Shown: piece after piece, positions 4,884-63,927 of the stretch
Position numbering within the stretch: the first letter of the stretch is position 1
Layout of the letters: each line of letters starts with the position of its first letter
DNA from: Salinisphaera sp.
GTDB lineage: Bacteria; Pseudomonadota; Gammaproteobacteria; Nevskiales; Salinisphaeraceae
Assembly: GCF_002729955.1 (NCBI RefSeq)
Contig: NZ_PBYA01000033.1
Location: 5,494 to 69,493 of the forward strand
Length of the DNA stretch: 64,000 nucleotides
Direction of reading: 5' to 3'
Made by a program: the position numbers and the translations under genes
The notes under the pieces: generated by a model
Database searches by the model: none
Told to the model about the DNA's origin: nothing
Seen by the model: only the letters and a program-made list of their open reading frames with translations

Positions 4884-5528
4884 TTACGGACGCGCGCTAC
4901 GCTGCTGGCTGATCAGATAATCCGCGACCTCGAGCATACGGTCGTTGCTGCCGGCAGTGCGCCCGGTCACGTAATAGCGCCCTGCCACCGTAATGCTCGG
5001 CGTGGCTGTCACCGGGAAAGCCTGCATGGCCTGGGCAGCTTGGCGCACTTTCTGCGTGATCTCGTCGCTTTCATAGACTTCGGCAAAGCGATCGCCATCG
5101 ACGCCCTGGTCGACCATGAAATCGCGCATGGCGGACTCGCTGAGCAGCCGCCGGCCCTGCTCATGAATTGCGGCAAAGATCTTGTCGTGCACCTGTTCCA
5201 GCACGCCGAGCTTTTCGGCGGTGTAATACAGACGCGCATAGGGCTCGCCGCCGGCACTGAAAAGTACGGGTACGCGCGAAAATTCGACGTCGTCGCCCAA
5301 CTGGTCGCGCCAGGTCTCGAGATCGGCCTCGAGGTGATAGCAGTGCGGACAGCTATAGAGGAAGAACTCGGTGACGTGGATCTTGCCGTCATCGGGCTGG
5401 TCGATCGGCTGCTTGGCGGCAAGATAATGCTCGCCTTCCACATAGCGCGAAATCATCAGCCCCTGCGCGTGGACCATCCCCACGATCAATAGCAGGACCA
5501 CGCCCGTTGCAATGCGCCACGTCTTCAT
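4884..5528 (-). CDS. dsbA: thiol:disulfide interchange protein DsbA
   Basis: Start trimmed to MKTWRIATGVVLLLIVGMVHAQG (signal peptide). CPHC active site in FFLYSCPHCYHLE. dsbA-cc4-engB-polA synteny as in pseudomonads. Confidence 0.92.
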   Translation of the reverse strand: MKTWRIATGVVLLLIVGMVHAQGLMISRYVEGEHYLAAKQPIDQPDDGKIHVTEFFLYSCPHCYHLEADLETWRDQLGDDVEFSRVPVLFSAGGEPYARLYYTAEKLGVLEQVHDKIFAAIHEQGRRLLSESAMRDFMVDQGVDGDRFAEVYESDEITQKVRQAAQAMQAFPVTATPSITVAGRYYVTGRTAGSNDRMLEVADYLISQQRSARP

Positions 5529-5567
5529 TCGTGCCCGACCTCTCTCAGGCGCAGCCGAACCCAATCG

Positions 5568-6473
5568 TTACTGCGCGTCGCTGTCGTCTTCGCTGGCCGC
5601 GGCGGCATCTTCGCCCGCATCGTCGGCCTCGTTGTTCTCTGCGCTGGCGGCCTCATCGCCAGCGGCCGCGCCGGCTTCCTGCTTGGCTGCTGCGTCAGCG
5701 TCCTGCGATTGCTGTTCGCTGGCGTCAACGGCCTCGGGCGAGGCTTCGCTTTCCGCGTCGTCACCGGTCTCAGCCTGGCCTGCCGCAGCGCCCGCCGGGC
5801 CGCCGGCATGCTGCATCAACGCGCCGTGGCCGCCGCCTTTCTTCTCGCCGGTCGCCGGCTGCAGCCCGGCCACATAGGAGGCCAGCGCCTGGATATCTTC
5901 ATCGCTGAGATTCTCGGCGACGCCATTCATGATGGTGGCATTGCGATAACCCGAACGGTCACCGCTGCGATAGGCCTTGAGCTGGGTGGCGATGTACTGC
6001 GGGGACTGGCCCGACAGACGCGGGAACTTCGCCGCTTCATTGCCGAGCCCGCTTGGGCCGTGGCAACCGGAGCAGGCCGGTACCGCATTCTCTGCGTCGC
6101 CGGCGTGATAGAGCATGGCGCCGGCAGGCGCGATCGACACATCGGCAGCGCCCGGGCGGGTCTGCTGGGACGCGTAATAAGCGGCGAGGTTTTTCATGTC
6201 CTCTTCGCTCAGACCCGCGGCCTGGCCGGCCATGATGGCGTTCTGGCGCTCGCCGGACTTGAACAGCTTGAGCTGTTCATAGATGTAGGGCGCGCCCTGG
6301 CCGGCAAGCTTGGGAAACTGGGCCGACTCCATGTTGCCCTGCGGGCCATGACAGGCCGCACACTGGGCAGAACGAGTCTTGCCGGCCTCGATGTCACCGT
6401 CCACCAACGGCTCGGCGGCGACGGCCCCGGCACAGATCATCAAGCCGAACAACACAAAAAGGCGCTTGGTCAT
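5568..6473 (-). CDS. cc4: di-haem cytochrome c4 with ~100-aa acidic low-complexity C-terminal tail
   Basis: Start trimmed to MTKRLFVLFGLMICAGAVAA. Two CxxCH haem sites (CAACHG, CSGCHG). The tail is GEKKGGG...DDAESEASPEAVDASEQQSQDADAA...EDDSDAQ. Confidence 0.9.
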   Translation of the reverse strand: MTKRLFVLFGLMICAGAVAAEPLVDGDIEAGKTRSAQCAACHGPQGNMESAQFPKLAGQGAPYIYEQLKLFKSGERQNAIMAGQAAGLSEEDMKNLAAYYASQQTRPGAADVSIAPAGAMLYHAGDAENAVPACSGCHGPSGLGNEAAKFPRLSGQSPQYIATQLKAYRSGDRSGYRNATIMNGVAENLSDEDIQALASYVAGLQPATGEKKGGGHGALMQHAGGPAGAAAGQAETGDDAESEASPEAVDASEQQSQDADAAAKQEAGAAAGDEAASAENNEADDAGEDAAAASEDDSDAQ

Positions 6474-6648: not shown

Positions 6649-7263
6649 ATGACAAGCATTACGCCCGCCGATTTCAAAGCGATGCGCTTTGTGTGCTCGG
6701 CACCCAATCCGCGCGCCTTCCCGGAGCCGGCCGGCGCGGAAATCGCCTTTGCCGGCCGCTCCAATGCCGGCAAGTCCAGCGCGCTCAACGCGCTGTGCGA
6801 GCGGACCGGGCTTGCACGCACCAGCAAGACGCCCGGCCGCACCCAGGCCATCAACTTCTTCACCAGCGATCAGCTGCGCTTCGCCGACCTGCCGGGCTAC
6901 GGTTTCGCCAAGGTGCCGCCGGCGGTCAAGGCCGCCTGGCAGGCGCTCATCGAGGGCTATCTGGCCACCCGCACAACCCTGGCCGGGGTGGTGCTCATCA
7001 TGGACGCGCGCCGCCCGCTCATGGAGTTCGACCGCCAGTTGATTGACTGGGGGGAGGCCCAGGGCCTGGGCTTTCATCTGCTGCTGACCAAGGCCGACAA
7101 GCTGTCGCGCAACCAGCAGGTCAATACTCTGCGCCAGGTCGAACGCGACATGCCCGATGCCAGCGTACAGCTGTTTTCATCCACCAAGCGCCAAGGCATC
7201 GACGAGGCCCGAGCCGCCATCGCGGCCTTTGCCAACGGTGCCAATGAGCAGCGCGTCGATTAG
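6649..7263 (+). CDS. engB: ribosome biogenesis GTP-binding protein YihA/EngB
   Basis: 204 aa. P-loop GRSNAGKSSALNAL, DLPGYG switch and LLTKADK (NKxD-like) motifs. Confidence 0.93.
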   Translation: MTSITPADFKAMRFVCSAPNPRAFPEPAGAEIAFAGRSNAGKSSALNALCERTGLARTSKTPGRTQAINFFTSDQLRFADLPGYGFAKVPPAVKAAWQALIEGYLATRTTLAGVVLIMDARRPLMEFDRQLIDWGEAQGLGFHLLLTKADKLSRNQQVNTLRQVERDMPDASVQLFSSTKRQGIDEARAAIAAFANGANEQRVD

Positions 7264-7330: not shown

Positions 7331-7531
7331 ATGGGATATGACATTCGGGCCTGGCTCGATCGAGAGGGCCGCCCCCAGTTGCAGATCATCGATATCGATT
7401 CCGGCCACGTGCAGCTGGCCTGGGACTGCGGCGGCGAACGTTCACCCGCTATCAAGTCCCTGTTTCATGAGCTGATCCTGCTAAGCGCACGCGAGGATCT
7501 CAATCGGCGCATGGTCGCGCCGCGCCGTTGA
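7331..7531 (+). CDS. hypothetical small protein (66 aa)
   Basis: ATG preceded by a strong SD (AGGAGG, 7 nt spacing). Balanced, non-repetitive composition. A hairpin plus T-run follows downstream. No family recognised. Confidence 0.55.
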   Translation: MGYDIRAWLDREGRPQLQIIDIDSGHVQLAWDCGGERSPAIKSLFHELILLSAREDLNRRMVAPRR

Positions 7532-7576
7532 CGCCGCCAGCCGCGCCCATATCGCGCGGCGACGACCGCTCATCGG

Positions 7577-7610
7577 AAAACCGGCCGTTTTAATCGACGC
7601 GCCGGTTTTT
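7577..7610 (+). terminator. putative intrinsic terminator of the small ORF
   Basis: AAAACCGGC...GCCGGTTTTT: a GC stem with a large 15-nt loop, followed by T5. Confidence 0.45.
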
Positions 7611-7653
7611 CTGTGGCATAAAATAGCCACAGCAAGAGATTGATTGCTCAGGG

Positions 7654-7770
7654 AATAAAAAAGCCCCGGCGGCAGGGGGAATACCGCCGGGGCGACCGAT
7701 CCGGCCTTGGGGGGGGGACCGGATCGAATTACCGCTCAGGGAGAAAAGCGGGCAAGTATTGCGCTTGCAT
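7654..7770 (-). ncRNA. C-rich-loop small RNA, copy A (sX13-like architecture)
   Basis: Minus-strand RNA: SL1 GCAAG-CGCAAUA-CUUGC; SL2 CCGCU-UUUCUCCCUG-AGCGG; SL3 CGAUCCGG-UC9AAGG-CCGGAUCG; SL4 GCCCCGGCGG-UAUUCCCCCUG-CCGCCGGGGC followed by U6 (terminator). The 5' end is inferred from the promoter at 7775-7802. Confidence 0.7.
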
Positions 7771-7774
7771 AGGG

Positions 7775-7802
7775 TCAGACCGGCAGCCAATCGGTTTGTT
7801 CC
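7775..7802 (-). promoter_or_regulatory. ECF sigma-E/AlgU-type promoter of sRNA copy A
   Basis: Minus strand GGAACAA-N16-TCTGA. Confidence 0.55.
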
Positions 7803-7872
7803 AAAAAAGTTGAAAAAATTTGCGGCTCGACGGCGGGCGGCTCTGGGGAGAGCCAACCTGCTGAATGAGCGC

Positions 7873-7984
7873 AAAAAAAACCCCGATGGCTGGGGGAAGC
7901 CTATCGGGGCAATAGACCGGTTCTTGGGGAAAACCGGATTCGGTTACCGCTCAGGGAGAAAAGCGGTCAAGCATCGCGCTTGTA
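7873..7984 (-). ncRNA. C-rich-loop small RNA, copy B
   Basis: SL1 CAAGC-GCGAU-GCUUG; SL2 CCGCU-UUUCUCCCUG-AGCGG; SL3 CCGGUU-UUCCCCAAG-AACCGG; SL4 CCCCGAUAGGCU-UCCCCC-AGCCAUCGGGG followed by U8. Confidence 0.72.
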
Positions 7985-7989
7985 GAGGG

Positions 7990-8018
7990 TCAGACCGTGA
8001 ACTCGGCGGGGGAGTTCC
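7990..8018 (-). promoter_or_regulatory. ECF sigma-E/AlgU-type promoter of sRNA copy B
   Basis: Minus strand GGAACTC-N17-TCTGA. Confidence 0.6.
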
Positions 8019-8075
8019 TGACCGAACCGGTTATTTTTTGCGGCGTGGACGCCCGTCCAGCAACAAAGCCGGCCA

Positions 8076-8191
8076 AAGAAAAACCCCGACGTCGTGGGGG
8101 AACGACGTCGGGGTAAATATTCCGGTTCTTGGGGGGAAACCGGATATCGGTTACCGCTCAGGGAGAAAAGCGGTCAAGCCTCTTGCTTGTA
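8076..8191 (-). ncRNA. C-rich-loop small RNA, copy C
   Basis: SL1 CAAGC-AAGAG-GCUUG; SL2 CCGCU-UUUCUCCCUG-AGCGG; SL3 CCGGUU-UCCCCCCAAG-AACCGG; SL4 CCCCGACGUCGU-UCCCCC-ACGACGUCGGGG followed by U5. Confidence 0.72.
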
Positions 8192-8196
8192 CAGGG

Positions 8197-8225
8197 TCAG
8201 ACCGTGGCCCTCGAGCCAGAGTTCC
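8197..8225 (-). promoter_or_regulatory. ECF sigma-E/AlgU-type promoter of sRNA copy C
   Basis: Minus strand GGAACTC-N17-TCTGA. Confidence 0.6.
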
Positions 8226-8289
8226 CGAGTCAGCCCACTATTTTTTCGCGGCGCGACCGGCTTGCTGGCCGAATTGGGAATCACCCCCA

Positions 8290-8410
8290 ATAAAAAACCC
8301 CGACGTCGCGGGGGAAACGACGCCGGGGCGAGTGTTCCGGTTCTTGGGGGGAAAACCGGATATGGGTTACCGCTCAGGGAGAAAAGCGGTTGAGCGTCGT
8401 AACGCTCATG
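8290..8410 (-). ncRNA. C-rich-loop small RNA, copy D
   Basis: SL1 GAGCG-UUACGA-CGCUC (stem sequence differs from B/C but pairing is retained); SL2 CCGCU-UUUCUCCCUG-AGCGG; SL3 CCGGUU-UUCCCCCCAAG-AACCGG; SL4 CCCCGGCGUCG-UUUCCCCCG-CGACGUCGGGG followed by U6. Confidence 0.72.
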
Positions 8411-8415
8411 GAAGG

Positions 8416-8443
8416 TCAGACCGGGCGTTTCCAGCCGAGTTCC
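8416..8443 (-). promoter_or_regulatory. ECF sigma-E/AlgU-type promoter of sRNA copy D
   Basis: Minus strand GGAACTC-N16-TCTGA. The -35 element lies only ~38 nt after the polA stop codon. Confidence 0.6.
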
Positions 8444-8480
8444 CGAGATTCGCGAAAAATTTTCAAACCGCGCTCTGGCC

Positions 8481-11234
8481 TCAATGTGCCTGCTGCCAGT
8501 TGGCTGCGATGCCGGCCTCGGCAAGCAACGGCACGTCGAGTTCTGCCACCCGGCCCATGCGCTCACTGATGACCTTGCCCAACCGCTCGGCCTGGTCCGT
8601 GGGCACTTCGAAGACCAGTTCGTCATGTACTTGCATGATCATGCGGGCCGGCTCCCCGGTTTCGTGCAGCCACGCATCCACGTCGATCATGGCTTTCTTG
8701 ATCAGGTCGGCGGCCGTGCCCTGAAGCGGCGCGTTGATGGCCGCGCGTTCCGCGCCCTGGCGGCGCGCGCCGTTGCGCGAATTGATTTCCGGTAGATAAA
8801 GCCGACGCCCATAGAGCGTTTCGACATAGCCCTCGGCCTTGGCAAGCTTGCGGGTTTCGTCCATGTAGCGACGCACGCCGGCGAAGCGTTCGAAGAAGCG
8901 ATCGATATAGGCACCGGCTTCCTCGCGCGAGGTTTCCAGCTGTTTGGCCAGCCCGAACGCCGACATGCCATACATCAGGCCGAAGTTGATCGCCTTGGCC
9001 GCGCGCCGCTGATCGGTGCTGACCTCATCAAGCGGCGTATCGAAGACTTCCGAAGCCGTGGCCGAATGAATATCCCGCTCTTCGTTGAAGGCCGCCAGCA
9101 GGCCCGGGTCGCCGGACAGATGCGCCATGATGCGAAGCTCGATCTGCGAGTAGTCGACGGCCAGAATCTGCTGGCCTTCGGGGGCGATGAACGCCTCCCG
9201 GATACGCCGGCCGGATTCGGTGCGAATAGGGATGTTCTGCAGGTTCGGATCCGACGAGGACAGTCGACCGGTGGCTGCGACCGCCTGATGGTAGGAGGTA
9301 TGAATACGCCCCGTGTTCGGATTGATCTGGGTCGGCAACTTCTCGGCATAGGTCGAGCGCAGCTTGGACAGCTCGCGCCACGACACGATAAGCGCCGGCA
9401 GTTCGTGCTGATCGGCCAGTTCGCGCAGCACGTCCTCGGCGGTCGAGGGCGCGCCCTTGGGCGTTTTGCGGATCACGGGCAGGGCGAGCCGATCGAAGAG
9501 AATATCCTTGAGCTGGGCCGGCGAACCGAGGTTGAACTCGCCCCCGGCGGCCTCGAACGCCTGGGTCTGGATTTCGGCCATACGCTCGGCCATTTCCTGA
9601 CTCACCCGGCCGAGCAGATCGCGATCGACCAGTACGCCGTTGGCTTCGACGCGGGCGAGCACGGGCATGAGCGGCATCTCGATATCTTCGTACAGCGCCT
9701 TCAGGCGCGGACTCTCGGCGAGCTCCCCGTAAAGACGGTGATGCAGCTGTAGCGTGATATCCGCGTCTTCGGCCGCATAGGGCGTGGCCTGTTCCAGCGA
9801 TACCTGGTTGAAGGTGATCTGCTTGGCGCCCTTGCCAGCCACTTCCTCGAACTTGGTGGTGCTCCGGTCCAGATACTTCTGTGCCAGCGAATCCATATCG
9901 TGACGCGTGGCCGTGCTGTTAAGCACATACGATTCGAGCATGGTGTCGTGATCGGCGCCGGCAACCTCGATTCCGTGACGGCGCAATACGTTGATGTCGT
10001 ACTTGATGTGCTGACCGAGCTTGGCGATATCGGGGTTTTCCAGAACCCCGCGCAGGCGATCGAGCACGGTTTGCATCGACAGCTGTTCGGGCGCGCCCAT
10101 GTAGTCGTGGCCGACCGGTACATACCAGGCCTCGCCTGCCTGAACCGCGAACGACAGCCCCACCAGATTGGACTGCATGGCCGACAGCGCATCGGTTTCC
10201 GTATCCACACAGATCAGGTCGGCGGCCTCAAGCCTGGCCATCATGGCCTCGAGGGCGTCCTGGTCGCGTACCTCGTGGTAATGCGTTTCGGCGGGTGCAG
10301 CCGGCACGTCCGGGCTGGCCTGTTCGGCGGGCGCGTCCAGATCTTCCAGGAACTTGTGGAATTCATAGCCACGGTACAGATCGCTGAGCGCCCGGACATC
10401 GGCCTCGCGCCGGGTGAGCGCCTCGCCGACCGAACCCAGGTCCAGATTACAGCGGATCGTGGCCAGATCCTTGTACAACGGCAGCTCGTCGAGCGCCGCG
10501 CGCAGGTTGTCCGCCACCTTGCCGCCGATTTCGTCGGCGTGGGCCATCACGCCGTCGAGGCCGTCGTACTGCAACAGCCATTTCGCCGCGGTCTTCGGCC
10601 CGACCTTGGCCACGCCGGGGATGTTGTCCGAACTGTCGCCCACCAGGGCGAGATAGTCGGTGATCAGCTCGGGGCCGACGCCGAATTTCTCGTGCACGCG
10701 GGCCACATCGGTACGCTTGTCCTGCATGGTATCGAGCAGGTTCACCCGCTCGTTGACCAGCTGCGCCATATCCTTGTCGCCGGTCACGATCAGCACTTCG
10801 CCGGCGTCGCGGGTGGCCAGGGTGCCGATTACATCGTCGGCTTCCACGCCGTCGACCTGCAGCAGGGGCAGGCCCAGTGCGACCACCACGTCGCGAATAC
10901 CCGCGAACTGTGCCGAAAGTTCTTCGGGCACCGGCGGACGATTGGCCTTGTAATCGGCGAACAGCTCGTTACGAAAGGTCGGGCCGCGCGGGTCGAACAC
11001 CACCACGATGCGATCGGCATCGTATTCGCGCAGGAACTTGCGCAGCATGTTGGTCATGCCATAGATCGCACCCGTGGGCTCGCCGGCGGCGTTGGTCAGC
11101 GGCGGCAGCACGTGGTAAGCGCGATACAGCCACGACGAGCCGTCAATAAGAATCAACGGACCACGCGGCGGCGTCGCAGCTGCGTTTTCGGAAGCAGAAG
11201 AACCAGCGGAATCGGACATGGGAGCAACCGGCAA
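8481..11234 (-). CDS. polA: DNA polymerase I
   Basis: 917-aa ORF with the 5'-3' exonuclease N-terminus (PLILIDGSSWLYRAYH), the 3'-5' exonuclease domain, and the polymerase motifs (DYSQIELRIMAHLS, QVHDELVFE). The track start is TTG at 11234. An ATG five codons downstream (11219) is an alternative start. Confidence 0.97.
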   Translation of the reverse strand: MPVAPMSDSAGSSASENAAATPPRGPLILIDGSSWLYRAYHVLPPLTNAAGEPTGAIYGMTNMLRKFLREYDADRIVVVFDPRGPTFRNELFADYKANRPPVPEELSAQFAGIRDVVVALGLPLLQVDGVEADDVIGTLATRDAGEVLIVTGDKDMAQLVNERVNLLDTMQDKRTDVARVHEKFGVGPELITDYLALVGDSSDNIPGVAKVGPKTAAKWLLQYDGLDGVMAHADEIGGKVADNLRAALDELPLYKDLATIRCNLDLGSVGEALTRREADVRALSDLYRGYEFHKFLEDLDAPAEQASPDVPAAPAETHYHEVRDQDALEAMMARLEAADLICVDTETDALSAMQSNLVGLSFAVQAGEAWYVPVGHDYMGAPEQLSMQTVLDRLRGVLENPDIAKLGQHIKYDINVLRRHGIEVAGADHDTMLESYVLNSTATRHDMDSLAQKYLDRSTTKFEEVAGKGAKQITFNQVSLEQATPYAAEDADITLQLHHRLYGELAESPRLKALYEDIEMPLMPVLARVEANGVLVDRDLLGRVSQEMAERMAEIQTQAFEAAGGEFNLGSPAQLKDILFDRLALPVIRKTPKGAPSTAEDVLRELADQHELPALIVSWRELSKLRSTYAEKLPTQINPNTGRIHTSYHQAVAATGRLSSSDPNLQNIPIRTESGRRIREAFIAPEGQQILAVDYSQIELRIMAHLSGDPGLLAAFNEERDIHSATASEVFDTPLDEVSTDQRRAAKAINFGLMYGMSAFGLAKQLETSREEAGAYIDRFFERFAGVRRYMDETRKLAKAEGYVETLYGRRLYLPEINSRNGARRQGAERAAINAPLQGTAADLIKKAMIDVDAWLHETGEPARMIMQVHDELVFEVPTDQAERLGKVISERMGRVAELDVPLLAEAGIAANWQQAH

Positions 11235-38476: not shown

Positions 38477-39550
38477 TCAGCCGCGGCGTAGCGTCCCATG
38501 TTCCACGTGGAACATCGCACCGTCTTTGAGGGCGTCGGGTACCAGACTCGGTTCGAGGAAAGTCAGGAAACACTGGCCACCAAGCCCCGCGATTTCTTCG
38601 GCGAGAACCTGCCGGTAGCGTGCGCCCAATTCGGCGGCCATATCGTCGATCAGCAAAACGGGGCGCACTTGTCGACGGGCATATAAAAGCCGAGCCTGAG
38701 TAAGCAGCATCGCCGTGGTCAGGATTTTCTGTTGACCTCGCGATACCCAGTCGCGAGCGGCGGCCGTAGCGATCGATACACGAAGGTCAGCACGGTGTGG
38801 GCCCTGTTGGGTGAAACCTGCGCGCACGTCCTGATCGAGCGACGCAGCGAGTGCTGCGCCATAGCCGTCCTCTCCGCGCCACCCACAGTCGTATTCGAGA
38901 ACGACAGGCTCGTCGCCGAGGAGCTTGGCCGACTGGTCCGGCAGGTTCGCATACAGATGGTCGATATAGGCGCGACGAGAAGCGTCCACTATTTCTGCCG
39001 CACGGACGAGCTCCGCATCCCATACAACGATGTCTGCTTTTGACATGCGCGACTTCAACGCGCGATTACGTTGTTTGAGGGCGCGCCTGAATCGTCGCCA
39101 TGCTGGAAAGAAAGCGTGTTCCACGTGAAACACGCCCCAGTCGAGGAAATGCCGCCGATAGCGGGGACCCTGTTCGAGCAGGCGGTGAACGTTAGGGTCC
39201 ACCATTTGCAGGGGCAGCGTGCTGATTAGGTCGATTCGGTTGGTGTTGCTTTCGCCATCGCGACGATATTTGATACCGCGCTTGTCCCGACTGACGCCGA
39301 GGCGATGAGATCGGCCGTCCGGCACGGCGATGTCACCGGTCACAGTGAAGGCGCTCGCGCCTGCACGTATTGCTGGACGAGGTCCGGACTGGCGAAACGA
39401 CTGACCACGACCCAGAAAATAGATCGCCTCGAGCAAGGTGGTCTTGCCCGAGGCGTTGTCGCCGGTAATGACGTTAATCGATGGATCAGGTTCGATGTCC
39501 GCTGAGGCGAAGCAGCGAAAATCGTGCAGGCGAAGACGCGTTAGATGCAT
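38477..39550 (-). CDS. recF: DNA replication/repair protein RecF
   Basis: 357 aa. Walker A GDNASGKTTLLEAI. Position between dnaN and gyrB. Confidence 0.95.
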   Translation of the reverse strand: MHLTRLRLHDFRCFASADIEPDPSINVITGDNASGKTTLLEAIYFLGRGQSFRQSGPRPAIRAGASAFTVTGDIAVPDGRSHRLGVSRDKRGIKYRRDGESNTNRIDLISTLPLQMVDPNVHRLLEQGPRYRRHFLDWGVFHVEHAFFPAWRRFRRALKQRNRALKSRMSKADIVVWDAELVRAAEIVDASRRAYIDHLYANLPDQSAKLLGDEPVVLEYDCGWRGEDGYGAALAASLDQDVRAGFTQQGPHRADLRVSIATAAARDWVSRGQQKILTTAMLLTQARLLYARRQVRPVLLIDDMAAELGARYRQVLAEEIAGLGGQCFLTFLEPSLVPDALKDGAMFHVEHGTLRRG

Positions 39551-57140: not shown

Positions 57141-57426
57141 ATTTCTGCGAGCGGCTCGCGCCGAGGCTAGGGAACAGGCGGCGTACTACCAGGAAATAGA
57201 GGCCGGGTTGGATGAATGCTTCATCGATGAGTTGGACCGCATACTGGCGCTGCTGTCTGCGTATCCTGCTATCGGGCAACGGATCGCCGAAGATGTGCGT
57301 CGGCTGGACCTTACCGGCTTTCCCCACGCGGTTGTCTATCGATTGGAACAAGGCCGCTTGCTGATTCTCGCAATCAGCCATCACAGGCGTCGCCCCGGCT
57401 ACTGGCGCGGGCGACTTTCGAACTAG
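57130..57426 (+). CDS. type II toxin, ParE/RelE superfamily (plasmid stabilisation protein-like)
   Basis: The GTG at 57130 overlaps the antitoxin stop by 11 nt. VQIEFLRAARAEAREQAAYYQEI...PAIGQRIAEDVRRLDLTGFPHAVVYRLEQGRLLILAISHHRRRPGYW fits the ParE fold pattern. The exact start is uncertain. Confidence 0.7.
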   Translation: MQIEFLRAARAEAREQAAYYQEIEAGLDECFIDELDRILALLSAYPAIGQRIAEDVRRLDLTGFPHAVVYRLEQGRLLILAISHHRRRPGYWRGRLSN

Positions 57427-62649: not shown

Positions 62650-63927
62650 ATGGTCCCGGTCTGGGTACGGCCGTGGTTGCTTGCGGCATTGCTGGCTTAT
62701 GCCGTGTTCGGCTTCTACTGGTATCTGTTCGTTGGCTATGCCGGCGGCTGGCACAATCAGCCCGAACAGCGTCTCGCCACGAAACTGGTTGAACCGGTGG
62801 ACTGGGACACACTCGAAACGGCCGCGGCCGGCGACGACGTGCTGCTGAGCGTGACATCCAGCGGCCGCGACGGCGAAGCCGAAGCCTGTACGCGCGACGG
62901 CGCCTGTCGCGACAAATGTCAGGCCGATGGAACAGTCAGGGCAGACGACACGCACCCGGTGCTCAACTGTCTGGTAACTGTGCCCGAAGCCGACATGAGC
63001 GATCGCAAGCAACAGATCGAGCGGATGATACGCCAGCGCGACCCGCTCGGTTTGAGCTATCTGCTGCGCGCCACCGATGACGAGCTGGCCGTCGTGGCCC
63101 GCTTGCAAGGCAACATCGAAGCCATGCAGTGCGGGCCGAACGGCACCTGCTATCTGATCGCGGAACTGCCGGATATCCCGAACAAGACGGTATTCGTCTC
63201 GAACGACCACGGCCACCACTGGCAACTGGCCGCGCAGAACGTGCTCGACAAAGCCTATGTGCCGAAAATCGTCGGTATCGACGGCGAGCGCGTGTGGGTC
63301 GACGGGTTCCAGCGTATCGTTCTGTCGGACGACGGCGGGCGCACCTGGCGCGTGCTCGCCGATGAAGAGCGGCTGCTCGCCCACAACGCCCGCGTCATGG
63401 GCGACCAGTCGCATAGCGACAGTATGAGCGATCGCTTTCGCTGGCGCCTGGACGATGCCGGCCAGCTCTATGCCGTGAGCGGCGACGGCTATAGCGATCG
63501 GTCGGGCGTGGCGATCTACCGGCTCGACGCGAAAACCGGCGAGATCGTCTCCGCCGCGCGCCATGAGGGCAGCTTCCCCTCGCTCGTCAACGGCCCCGGC
63601 GGCCAGCTTTTCGGCATCTACCGCACGCCCGAGCCCGCCCGCTATACAGTGTATCGCCTGCGCAACGGCAACTGGTCGCCCGTACTGGTGGCCGGCAACG
63701 CGCCGCTCAGTAGCTTGCGCGGCAACGCCCACGCGCTCATCGTCGAAAAAGGCCGCGGCGACGGCGCGCACCTGCTGCTCAGCCGGGACGGCGGTCAGCA
63801 CTGGCAGGCCATGGCCGATCTCTATATCCGTGATCGTATGGAATTCGACCCGGCCGGCGCCGGCTGGCTGCGCATGGGCTACCGCAACCGGGAAGGCTAT
63901 TACGGCTATCGCTGGATTCGGCCGTAG
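62650..63927 (+). CDS. membrane-anchored BNR/Asp-box repeat (beta-propeller-like) protein
   Basis: 425 aa. The ATG lies 2 nt after the upstream stop. N-terminal TM (WLLAALLAYAVFGFYWYLFVGY). Three Asp-box motifs S-x-D-x-G-x-x-W (SNDHGHHW, SDDGGRTW, SRDGGQHW). Confidence 0.7.
   Translation: MVPVWVRPWLLAALLAYAVFGFYWYLFVGYAGGWHNQPEQRLATKLVEPVDWDTLETAAAGDDVLLSVTSSGRDGEAEACTRDGACRDKCQADGTVRADDTHPVLNCLVTVPEADMSDRKQQIERMIRQRDPLGLSYLLRATDDELAVVARLQGNIEAMQCGPNGTCYLIAELPDIPNKTVFVSNDHGHHWQLAAQNVLDKAYVPKIVGIDGERVWVDGFQRIVLSDDGGRTWRVLADEERLLAHNARVMGDQSHSDSMSDRFRWRLDDAGQLYAVSGDGYSDRSGVAIYRLDAKTGEIVSAARHEGSFPSLVNGPGGQLFGIYRTPEPARYTVYRLRNGNWSPVLVAGNAPLSSLRGNAHALIVEKGRGDGAHLLLSRDGGQHWQAMADLYIRDRMEFDPAGAGWLRMGYRNREGYYGYRWIRP

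Follow-up and report, generated by a model that had tools for sequence, protein, structure and literature searches.

The question raised by this locus is how a tandem set of small RNA (sRNA) genes in a halophilic marine bacterium is controlled, and to which sRNA family it belongs. The DNA is a stretch of 64,000 nucleotides (nt), called the window here, from Salinisphaera sp. (assembly GCF_002729955.1, contig NZ_PBYA01000033.1, positions 5,494 to 69,493). At positions 7655-8411 of its minus strand, inside the polA-engB intergenic region, four head-to-tail units of about 115-123 nt each follow one another with unit-to-unit periods of 219, 207 and 215 nt; they are labeled D, C, B and A, unit D being nearest to polA. 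A first-pass annotation of this DNA had predicted an array of sRNAs induced by envelope stress, each copy with an extracytoplasmic function (ECF) promoter of the sigma-E/AlgU type. The units are most probably four separately transcribed tandem paralogues of an sRNA of the ErsA/sX13 family, each made from its own RpoE/AlgU-type promoter and induced by envelope stress.

The motif described in that annotation stands upstream of every unit: GGAACTC-N16 (unit D), GGAACTC-N17 (C and B) or GGAACAA-N16 (A), followed by TCTGA. When both strands of the window are searched for GAACNN-N16/17-TCTGA, four matches are found, and all are the unit promoters on the minus strand; 100 dinucleotide shuffles gave an expectation of 0.57 matches, a maximum of 3, and never 4. 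The earlier argument took the four matches as independent; they are not, since the units are paralogues. Independence of the motif evidence comes from elsewhere: the -35 and -10 blocks are invariant among the paralogues and the spacer between them has drifted, and other genomes keep the motif. From TCTGA to the AAGC/GAGC stem of the 5' hairpin the gap is 8 nt in every copy, or 6-7 nt if the outermost possible pairs are counted; the 5-7 nt previously given between the -10 element and the first stem-loop was roughly right. A consensus scan of positions 7400-8700 detected no sigma-70 consensus pair, in agreement with what had been claimed. Sigma-54, sigma-32 and sigma-28 promoters were rejected by inspection as poor fits to the sequence. 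Three other places in the window (621-594, 57345-57372 and 62790-62817) matched a relaxed sigma-E pattern, with poor -10 elements.

The AlgU consensus, GAACTT-N16/17-TCtgA (PMC10651043), is matched by the window motif. All four units have the features of an RpoE/AlgU (ECF group 2) promoter, a GGAACTT-type -35 and a TCnnA -10 at 16-17 nt, with GGAACAA in copy A. In 15 of 15 Salinisphaeraceae units, those of the window and of five related loci (L001-L005), an A/T tract (AAAWTTTT...) begins 20 nt before GGAAC; set in GC-rich surroundings, it resembles an UP element.

Conservation was examined in 80 gammaproteobacterial polA loci (labeled L001 onward) with two covariance models, R1 from the four window units and R2 from an sX13-like set; the E-values of both are rough. 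In about 40 of the 80 loci, model R1 recognizes units that follow polA directly and lie on its strand. Copy numbers are 1-3 in Salinisphaeraceae and 1-2 in Solimonas, Hydrocarboniphaga and Panacagrimonas, and there are also matches in Woeseiaceae, Wenzhouxiangella, Chromatiales, Methylothermaceae and Xanthomonadales. The pattern GAAC-N18/19-TCNNA was counted in the 70 nt upstream of 38 model matches outside the window. It is found in 34 of these polA-linked homologues, ending 2-18 nt (mode 4) before the start of the RNA model. Their consensus is (G/T)GAACT(T/C)-N16/17-TCT(A/G)A, with a 16-nt spacer in 32 cases and a 17-nt spacer in 6. GAAC and TC..A have an information content of about 2 bits, which drops to about 0 in the spacer and flanks. 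For ErsA, 86 of 88 distinct loci carry GGAACT(A/T)-N16/17-TC(A/T)GA at a fixed distance. The first-pass annotation had named absence of the motif from homologous arrays as evidence against its proposal; what is observed is that the motif is kept. A fifth R1 match in the window (39417-39529, minus strand, 23.5 bits) is a false positive: it lies inside a recF-like coding sequence (...ITGDNASGKTTLLEAIYFLGRGQSFR...), is without the motif, and is lost with R2.

Within Salinisphaera each paralogue retains its -35 and -10 elements with a changed spacer, for example in L001 and L002. A related strain seen in metatranscriptome contigs likewise has a different unit B spacer with GGAAC and TCTGA retained (loose ends at 7996). 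The GGAACAA -35 of the last copy is shared by four genomes (the window, L001, L002 and L003). The L001 locus, from the cultured Salinisphaera shabanensis E1L3A, has three units (L001:5269-5821). Orthologues are more alike than paralogues: unit D is 89% identical to unit 1 of L001, unit B 91% to its unit 2, and unit A 92% to its unit 3. Since positional orthologues are closer than paralogues, the Salinisphaera array must be old. Unit C has as its nearest relatives L001 unit 2 (85%), unit B (84%) and L002 unit 2 (84%). The L002 record (NZ_JAGHQU010000005.1) is labeled Endozoicomonas sp. G2_2 and has a PolA 91% identical to that of the window and a three-unit array of the Salinisphaera type; the organism label is probably wrong, or the assembly contaminated. 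Other polA loci, from Endozoicomonas/Alteromonadaceae (L011:5239-5817, L034:5607-5841 and L042:5447-5598), show, after polA, 2-3 tandem sigma-E-type motifs with weak model matches of 17-29 bits, and may be further diverged tandem arrays of the sX13/ErsA-like family.

A different sigma factor could read such promoters. Under that alternative the promoters are real and are used by an ECF sigma factor other than the RpoE/AlgU orthologue, so that the array answers a different signal. It is generally known that a GGAAC -35 is common to many ECF groups; the 64-kb window has no rpoE, and the -10 element differs among lineages (TCTGA, TCTAA, TCATA, TCAGA, TCTAT). Most other ECF groups, however, are known to use a CGTC-type -10. 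A TCnnA -10 together with a spacer of 16/17 nt is what marks RpoE/AlgU promoters (PMC10651043), and the homologous ersA promoter has been shown by experiment to be sigma-22-dependent (PMC7565897). This makes another ECF factor unlikely. The comparative evidence and the homology to the characterized ersA promoter argue for the ECF sigma-E/AlgU-type promoter that the first-pass annotation had proposed, with an RpoE/AlgU orthologue as the probable sigma factor.

The RNA itself links the array to known sRNAs. All four units fold as four hairpins (z -5.5 to -7.6): a variable 5' hairpin, one with an invariant UUUCUCCCUGA loop, one whose loop contains 4-9 consecutive C, and a GC-rich terminator with a UUCCCCC loop and a U-run. 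Unit D, for example, with a predicted fold of -55.9 kcal/mol (z -7.2), runs from the 5' hairpin through the UUUCUCCCUGA-loop hairpin and a C6-loop hairpin to the C-rich-loop terminator and U-run. In an alignment of 42 sequences (A3), which was fitted to the model structure so that its counts lean toward that structure, the paired share of cells is 95.8%, against 35-45% in slid controls, and double changes occur in 31 of 32 pairs. For the 5' hairpin 4 of 4 pairs covary, with 98% of cells paired against 35-45% in the slid controls.

At Rfam gathering thresholds nothing in the window matches. Below threshold, the sX13 model gives 48.3 bits with unit A (threshold 50) and 28-30 bits with units B-D, and the Pseudomon-1/ErsA model gives 18-37 bits (threshold 50), the best being 37.1 for unit C. 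Because the scores fall short for both, the units are termed new, diverged members and not sX13 or ErsA proper. The R1 match in Stenotrophomonas (52 bits, E ~1e-11) coincides with an sX13 confirmed by Rfam (123.6 bits). ErsA loci were retrieved by scanning metagenome contigs for a word that is conserved in the ErsA consensus of Rfam; 14 of them were tested. All 14 are ErsA by Rfam (106-144 bits), each between polA and a convergent engB whose product is about 50% identical to that of the window engB. Model R2 matches all 14 over their full length, weakly (25-39 bits, E 1e-7 to 3e-4). When the window units are aligned with ErsA, the 3' half is good and the 5' half is of different architecture. 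Common to the window units, sX13 and ErsA are the 5' hairpin and the 3' half, consisting of the C-loop hairpin and the C-loop terminator; the second module differs by branch. Judged from sequence and predicted structure, the three look like one family.

A model of a Burkholderia sRNA, anti-hemB (RF02837), also recognizes all four units, with scores of 36-42 bits and E-values from 4e-8 to 2e-6. In unit C the match lies at 8076-8176 (41.8 bits), and the matched part contains the CCGCUU-UCUCCCUGAGCGG hairpin almost verbatim. This likeness is a hint that Betaproteobacteria, too, may have the family or its modules.

The predicted transcription start lies 5-7 nt beyond TCTGA. Because the 5' hairpin covaries, both of its arms must be in the transcript, and the RNA must begin upstream of it. 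The published ErsA length of 132 nt (PMC5819304) agrees with a start some 5-7 nt past the -10 element, since ErsA loci measure 132 nt from 5-6 nt past that element to the end of the U-run; the R2 match there has this length too and begins 6 nt after TCAGA. In Stenotrophomonas (L070:5329-5358) the start of the Rfam sX13 model (L070:5350) falls within the 5' hairpin loop, and a sigma-E-like -10 lies 17 nt before it. This apparent conflict over the start is resolved because the 5' end of sX13 is reported as processed (PMC3300014). The two observations together suggest that a primary transcript, longer by about 10 nt, is trimmed to the 115-nt form.

Marine metatranscriptome contigs cover units B and C, and polA is essentially uncovered; over a 20-kb view the coverage is patchy and low. 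Contig ends at 7969 and 8176 were rejected as RNA ends, as they coincide with a 33-nt word common to units B and C and are thus assembly breaks. One contig (run X3) connects 7770, near the start of unit A, by way of 173 other letters to 8364 inside unit D; it comes either from a strain with another copy number or content or from a repeat-induced assembly join.

The units might also be cut from a transcript reading through from polA, as a cluster derived from its 3' untranslated region, and GGAAC/TCTGA would then be a processing or protein-binding site. The report that sX13 is processed from a longer transcript and has no start site (PMC3300014) can be read this way; no terminator is evident from the polA stop codon to unit D, and inter-unit spacers are spanned by metatranscriptome contigs. 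Each unit is closed, however, by a strong intrinsic terminator, and the exact sigma-E spacing, with a freely varying spacer, occurs in more than 100 loci. Coverage of units B and C is not accompanied by coverage of polA. ErsA is a primary sigma-22-dependent transcript (PMC7565897), and the 5' end of sX13, placed in a covarying hairpin's loop 17 nt after a -10-like element, fits the trimming of a short primary transcript better than a cut from the polA mRNA. Read-through from polA is accordingly quite improbable as the source of the units. Least credible is the proposal that the four matches reflect only shared descent of duplicated units, with true sigma-70-type promoters elsewhere in the spacers: paralogues are expected to share sequence and each unit has an upstream A/T-rich tract, but no sigma-70 consensus pair was found, the -35/-10 spacers have diverged around two invariant blocks, and the motif is kept across orders where the flanks cannot be aligned.

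Several observations weigh against separate sigma-E-type promoters for the four units, in addition to the rough E-values and the fitted alignment already described. Mapping of the start site is limited to assembled metatranscriptome contigs, whose ends fall on k-mers common to the copies, and some contigs cross the spacers between terminator and promoter, so that read-through or DNA carry-over is possible. Differential RNA sequencing of sX13 in Xanthomonas gave reads mainly in the untreated library and no start site, and the RNA was termed a processing product (PMC3300014). A tblastn search detected no rpoE/algU homologue in the 64-kb window. The copy A -35 (GGAACAA) is non-consensus; the -10 element is TCTAT in some Xanthomonadales, and the motif is absent in others, e.g., L069. 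For the relaxed pattern, with a background of about 7e-5 per nt in the same loci, the nominal binomial P of ~4e-81 is overstated because it ignores phylogenetic relatedness.

With each unit transcribed from its own RpoE/AlgU-type promoter, a simple course of events can be proposed. Envelope stress would free the RpoE/AlgU orthologue from its anti-sigma factor, and the freed sigma factor would fire all four promoters together. Each promoter would yield an RNA of about 115-123 nt with the 5' hairpin, the UUUCUCCCUGA and CCCCCC loops, and an intrinsic terminator, its loop likewise rich in C. Such loops look like an anti-Shine-Dalgarno sequence and may pair with G-rich ribosome-binding regions of target messenger RNAs (mRNAs) and change their translation, a mode of action demonstrated for sX13 and ErsA. 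Amplification would most likely raise the dose or grade the response (the copy A -35 looks weaker) rather than diversify the targets, because all four copies have nearly the same seed loops. The four-fold gene dosage proposed earlier holds in part: these loops are in keeping with it, but the copies are old paralogues with conserved positional orthologues, and copy A has its deviant -35.

ErsA (Pseudomon-1, RF01719) of Pseudomonas aeruginosa is the closest characterized counterpart. Its gene lies between polA and engB (PMC8575079) on the polA strand, with a sigma-E/AlgU-type promoter at the same distance and a similar RNA length. It shares with the window units the 5' hairpin, a C-rich-loop hairpin after GAUAUCCGG, and a C-rich-loop terminator. 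ErsA differs in being single copy and in its long unpaired GCUCCUAUGUUGUGUUAAGUGUUGGCA stretch, the place of which is taken in the window units by the UUUCUCCCUGA hairpin. Its transcription is described as strictly sigma-22/AlgU-dependent, with conserved -10/-35 core motifs (PMC7565897, PMC8395346 and PMC5819304, citing Ferrara 2015). It pairs through its C-rich loop with G-rich ribosome-binding regions and is Hfq-dependent (PMC8395346). Dependence on sigma-22 and Hfq, and the targets algC, oprD, amrZ and anr, are established for ErsA only. The first-pass annotation overlooked that the array is of this known ErsA/sX13 type of locus, which makes its sigma-E prediction an extension and not a discovery.

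The sX13 RNA (RF02232) of Xanthomonadaceae, like the window units, lies downstream of polA, in its case always, and has C-rich-loop stem-loops. Its 4C/5C loop motifs pair with G-rich mRNA motifs, it is Hfq-independent, and it accumulates at high salt and 37 C (PMC3771888). In contrast to the window units it is described as single copy and restricted to Xanthomonadaceae, and the published 115-nt form, being processed, has lost the first arm of the 5' hairpin (PMC3300014). No promoter or regulator has been described for it; in Xanthomonadales loci the motif is CACGAACY-N16/17-TCTAT/TCATA/TCTCA.

More distant comparisons are with sRNAs that share control, arrangement or position. MicA, RybB and MicL of enterobacteria are, as is generally known, sRNAs with sigma-E promoters, and they make up the repressing side of the response to envelope stress (PMC1851643). 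They are unrelated to the array in sequence, structure and locus, are not tandemly amplified, and act Hfq-dependently with linear seeds against porin and lipoprotein mRNAs. The cuckoo RNAs CcsR1-4 (RSs0680a-d) of Rhodobacter and other alphaproteobacteria are, like the array, four tandem paralogous stress-induced sRNAs with C-rich CCUCCUCCC loops (PMC4615179). That cluster has one RpoH-type promoter and is co-transcribed with the upstream gene, whereas each window unit has its own promoter-like motif and terminator. The cuckoo-related ar14 model gives 38 bits (threshold 58.8), below what would place the array with cuckoo/CcsR/ar14 RNAs, and no homology between cuckoo RNAs and sX13 is reported (PMC4615179).

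Spot 42 (spf, RF00021) occupies the polA-engB/yihA position in Enterobacterales, Vibrionaceae and Shewanella (PMC3771888). It differs from the array in sequence and structure (the window scores 23.1 bits, threshold 80) and has a CRP-repressed sigma-70 promoter. Among the polA loci examined, genuine Spot 42 is found in Edwardsiella and Shewanella only, and the Spot 42-bearing loci have no sigma-E motif. Weak R2 matches (24-28 bits) occur in Shewanella at L065:5684-5789 and L022:5459-5554. The one in L065 is just downstream of the Spot 42 gene (5495-5613) and is without an upstream sigma-E motif; these matches may be a remnant or chance.

Table 1. Coordinates of the sRNA array, its predicted promoters and the flanking genes in the 64,000-nt window.
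Feature	Position	Strand	Evidence and remarks
engB/yihA-type GTPase	6649..7263	+	Pfam MMR_HSR1; convergent with the array
sRNA unit A	7655..7770	-	Orthologue of L001 unit 3 (92%) and L002 unit 3 (91%); fold z -6.1
Promoter, unit A (predicted)	7775..7821	-	A/T tract 7821-7803; deviant -35 GGAACAA 7802-7796; N16; -10 TCTGA 7779-7775
sRNA unit B	7872..7985	-	Orthologue of L001 unit 2, 91% identity; fold z -5.5
Promoter, unit B (predicted)	7990..8039	-	A tract 8039-8031; -35 GGAACTC 8018-8012; N17; -10 TCTGA 7994-7990
sRNA unit C	8075..8192	-	Extra copy; fold z -7.6
Promoter, unit C (predicted)	8197..8246	-	A tract 8246-8239; -35 GGAACTC 8225-8219; N17; -10 TCTGA 8201-8197
sRNA unit D (~120 nt)	8289..8411	-	Models R1/R2, fold, terminator scan
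Promoter, unit D (predicted)	8416..8463	-	A/T tract 8463-8455 (UP-element-like); -35 GGAACTC 8443-8437; N16; -10 TCTGA 8420-8416
polA (DNA polymerase I)	8481..11234	-	Pfam DNA_pol_A, 5'-3' exonuclease, 3'-5' exonuclease; directly upstream of the array

The sequence is that of a Salinisphaera: the C-terminal 399 amino acids of PolA are 95% identical to those of Salinisphaera shabanensis E1L3A. The exact sequence of the region is present in marine metagenomes. Mechanically called open reading frames of 94-321 amino acids overlap the array (7590-7874 and 8174-8626 on the minus strand, 7759-8724 and 8094-8393 on the plus strand). A Pfam search found no match for the 94-amino-acid frame, and these frames should not be annotated as genes.

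For a specialist the promoter will be no surprise, since an sRNA driven by sigma-E/AlgU beside polA is already established for ErsA; what is new is the amplified members in a new lineage. The most interesting by-product is the link between sX13 and ErsA. The former has been called exclusive to Xanthomonadaceae (PMC3771888) and said to be without homologues elsewhere (PMC4615179). In the open literature searched, no paper naming both RNAs was found, nor any mention of the link or of a sigma-E promoter spanning orders.

On balance, ErsA and sX13 appear to be two branches of one ancient polA-engB-linked family of sRNAs with C-rich loops, ancestrally controlled by sigma-E, replaced by Spot 42 in some lineages and amplified in others. 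Such a family would range over Salinisphaeraceae, the Solimonas group, Woeseiaceae, Wenzhouxiangella, Chromatiales, Methylothermaceae, Xanthomonadales and Pseudomonas. The sigma-E-type promoter would be ancestral and still nearly universal. Spot 42 would substitute for the family in enterics, vibrios and Shewanella, and several marine lineages would carry 2-4 tandem copies. If this is true, sX13 is itself sigma-E-controlled and its 115-nt form the trimmed product of the slightly longer primary transcript proposed above, which would supply a candidate for its missing regulator.

Two well-studied sRNAs associated with virulence, ErsA and sX13, which are separate in the literature, thereby become connected. 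For the halophilic marine bacterium, the abundant sRNA locus, unstudied at the RNA level, receives a regulon assignment that can be tested. Confirmation would mean that the envelope-stress response of most gammaproteobacteria includes a conserved sRNA arm, encoded at one fixed place in the chromosome, whose copy number evolution can turn like a dial.

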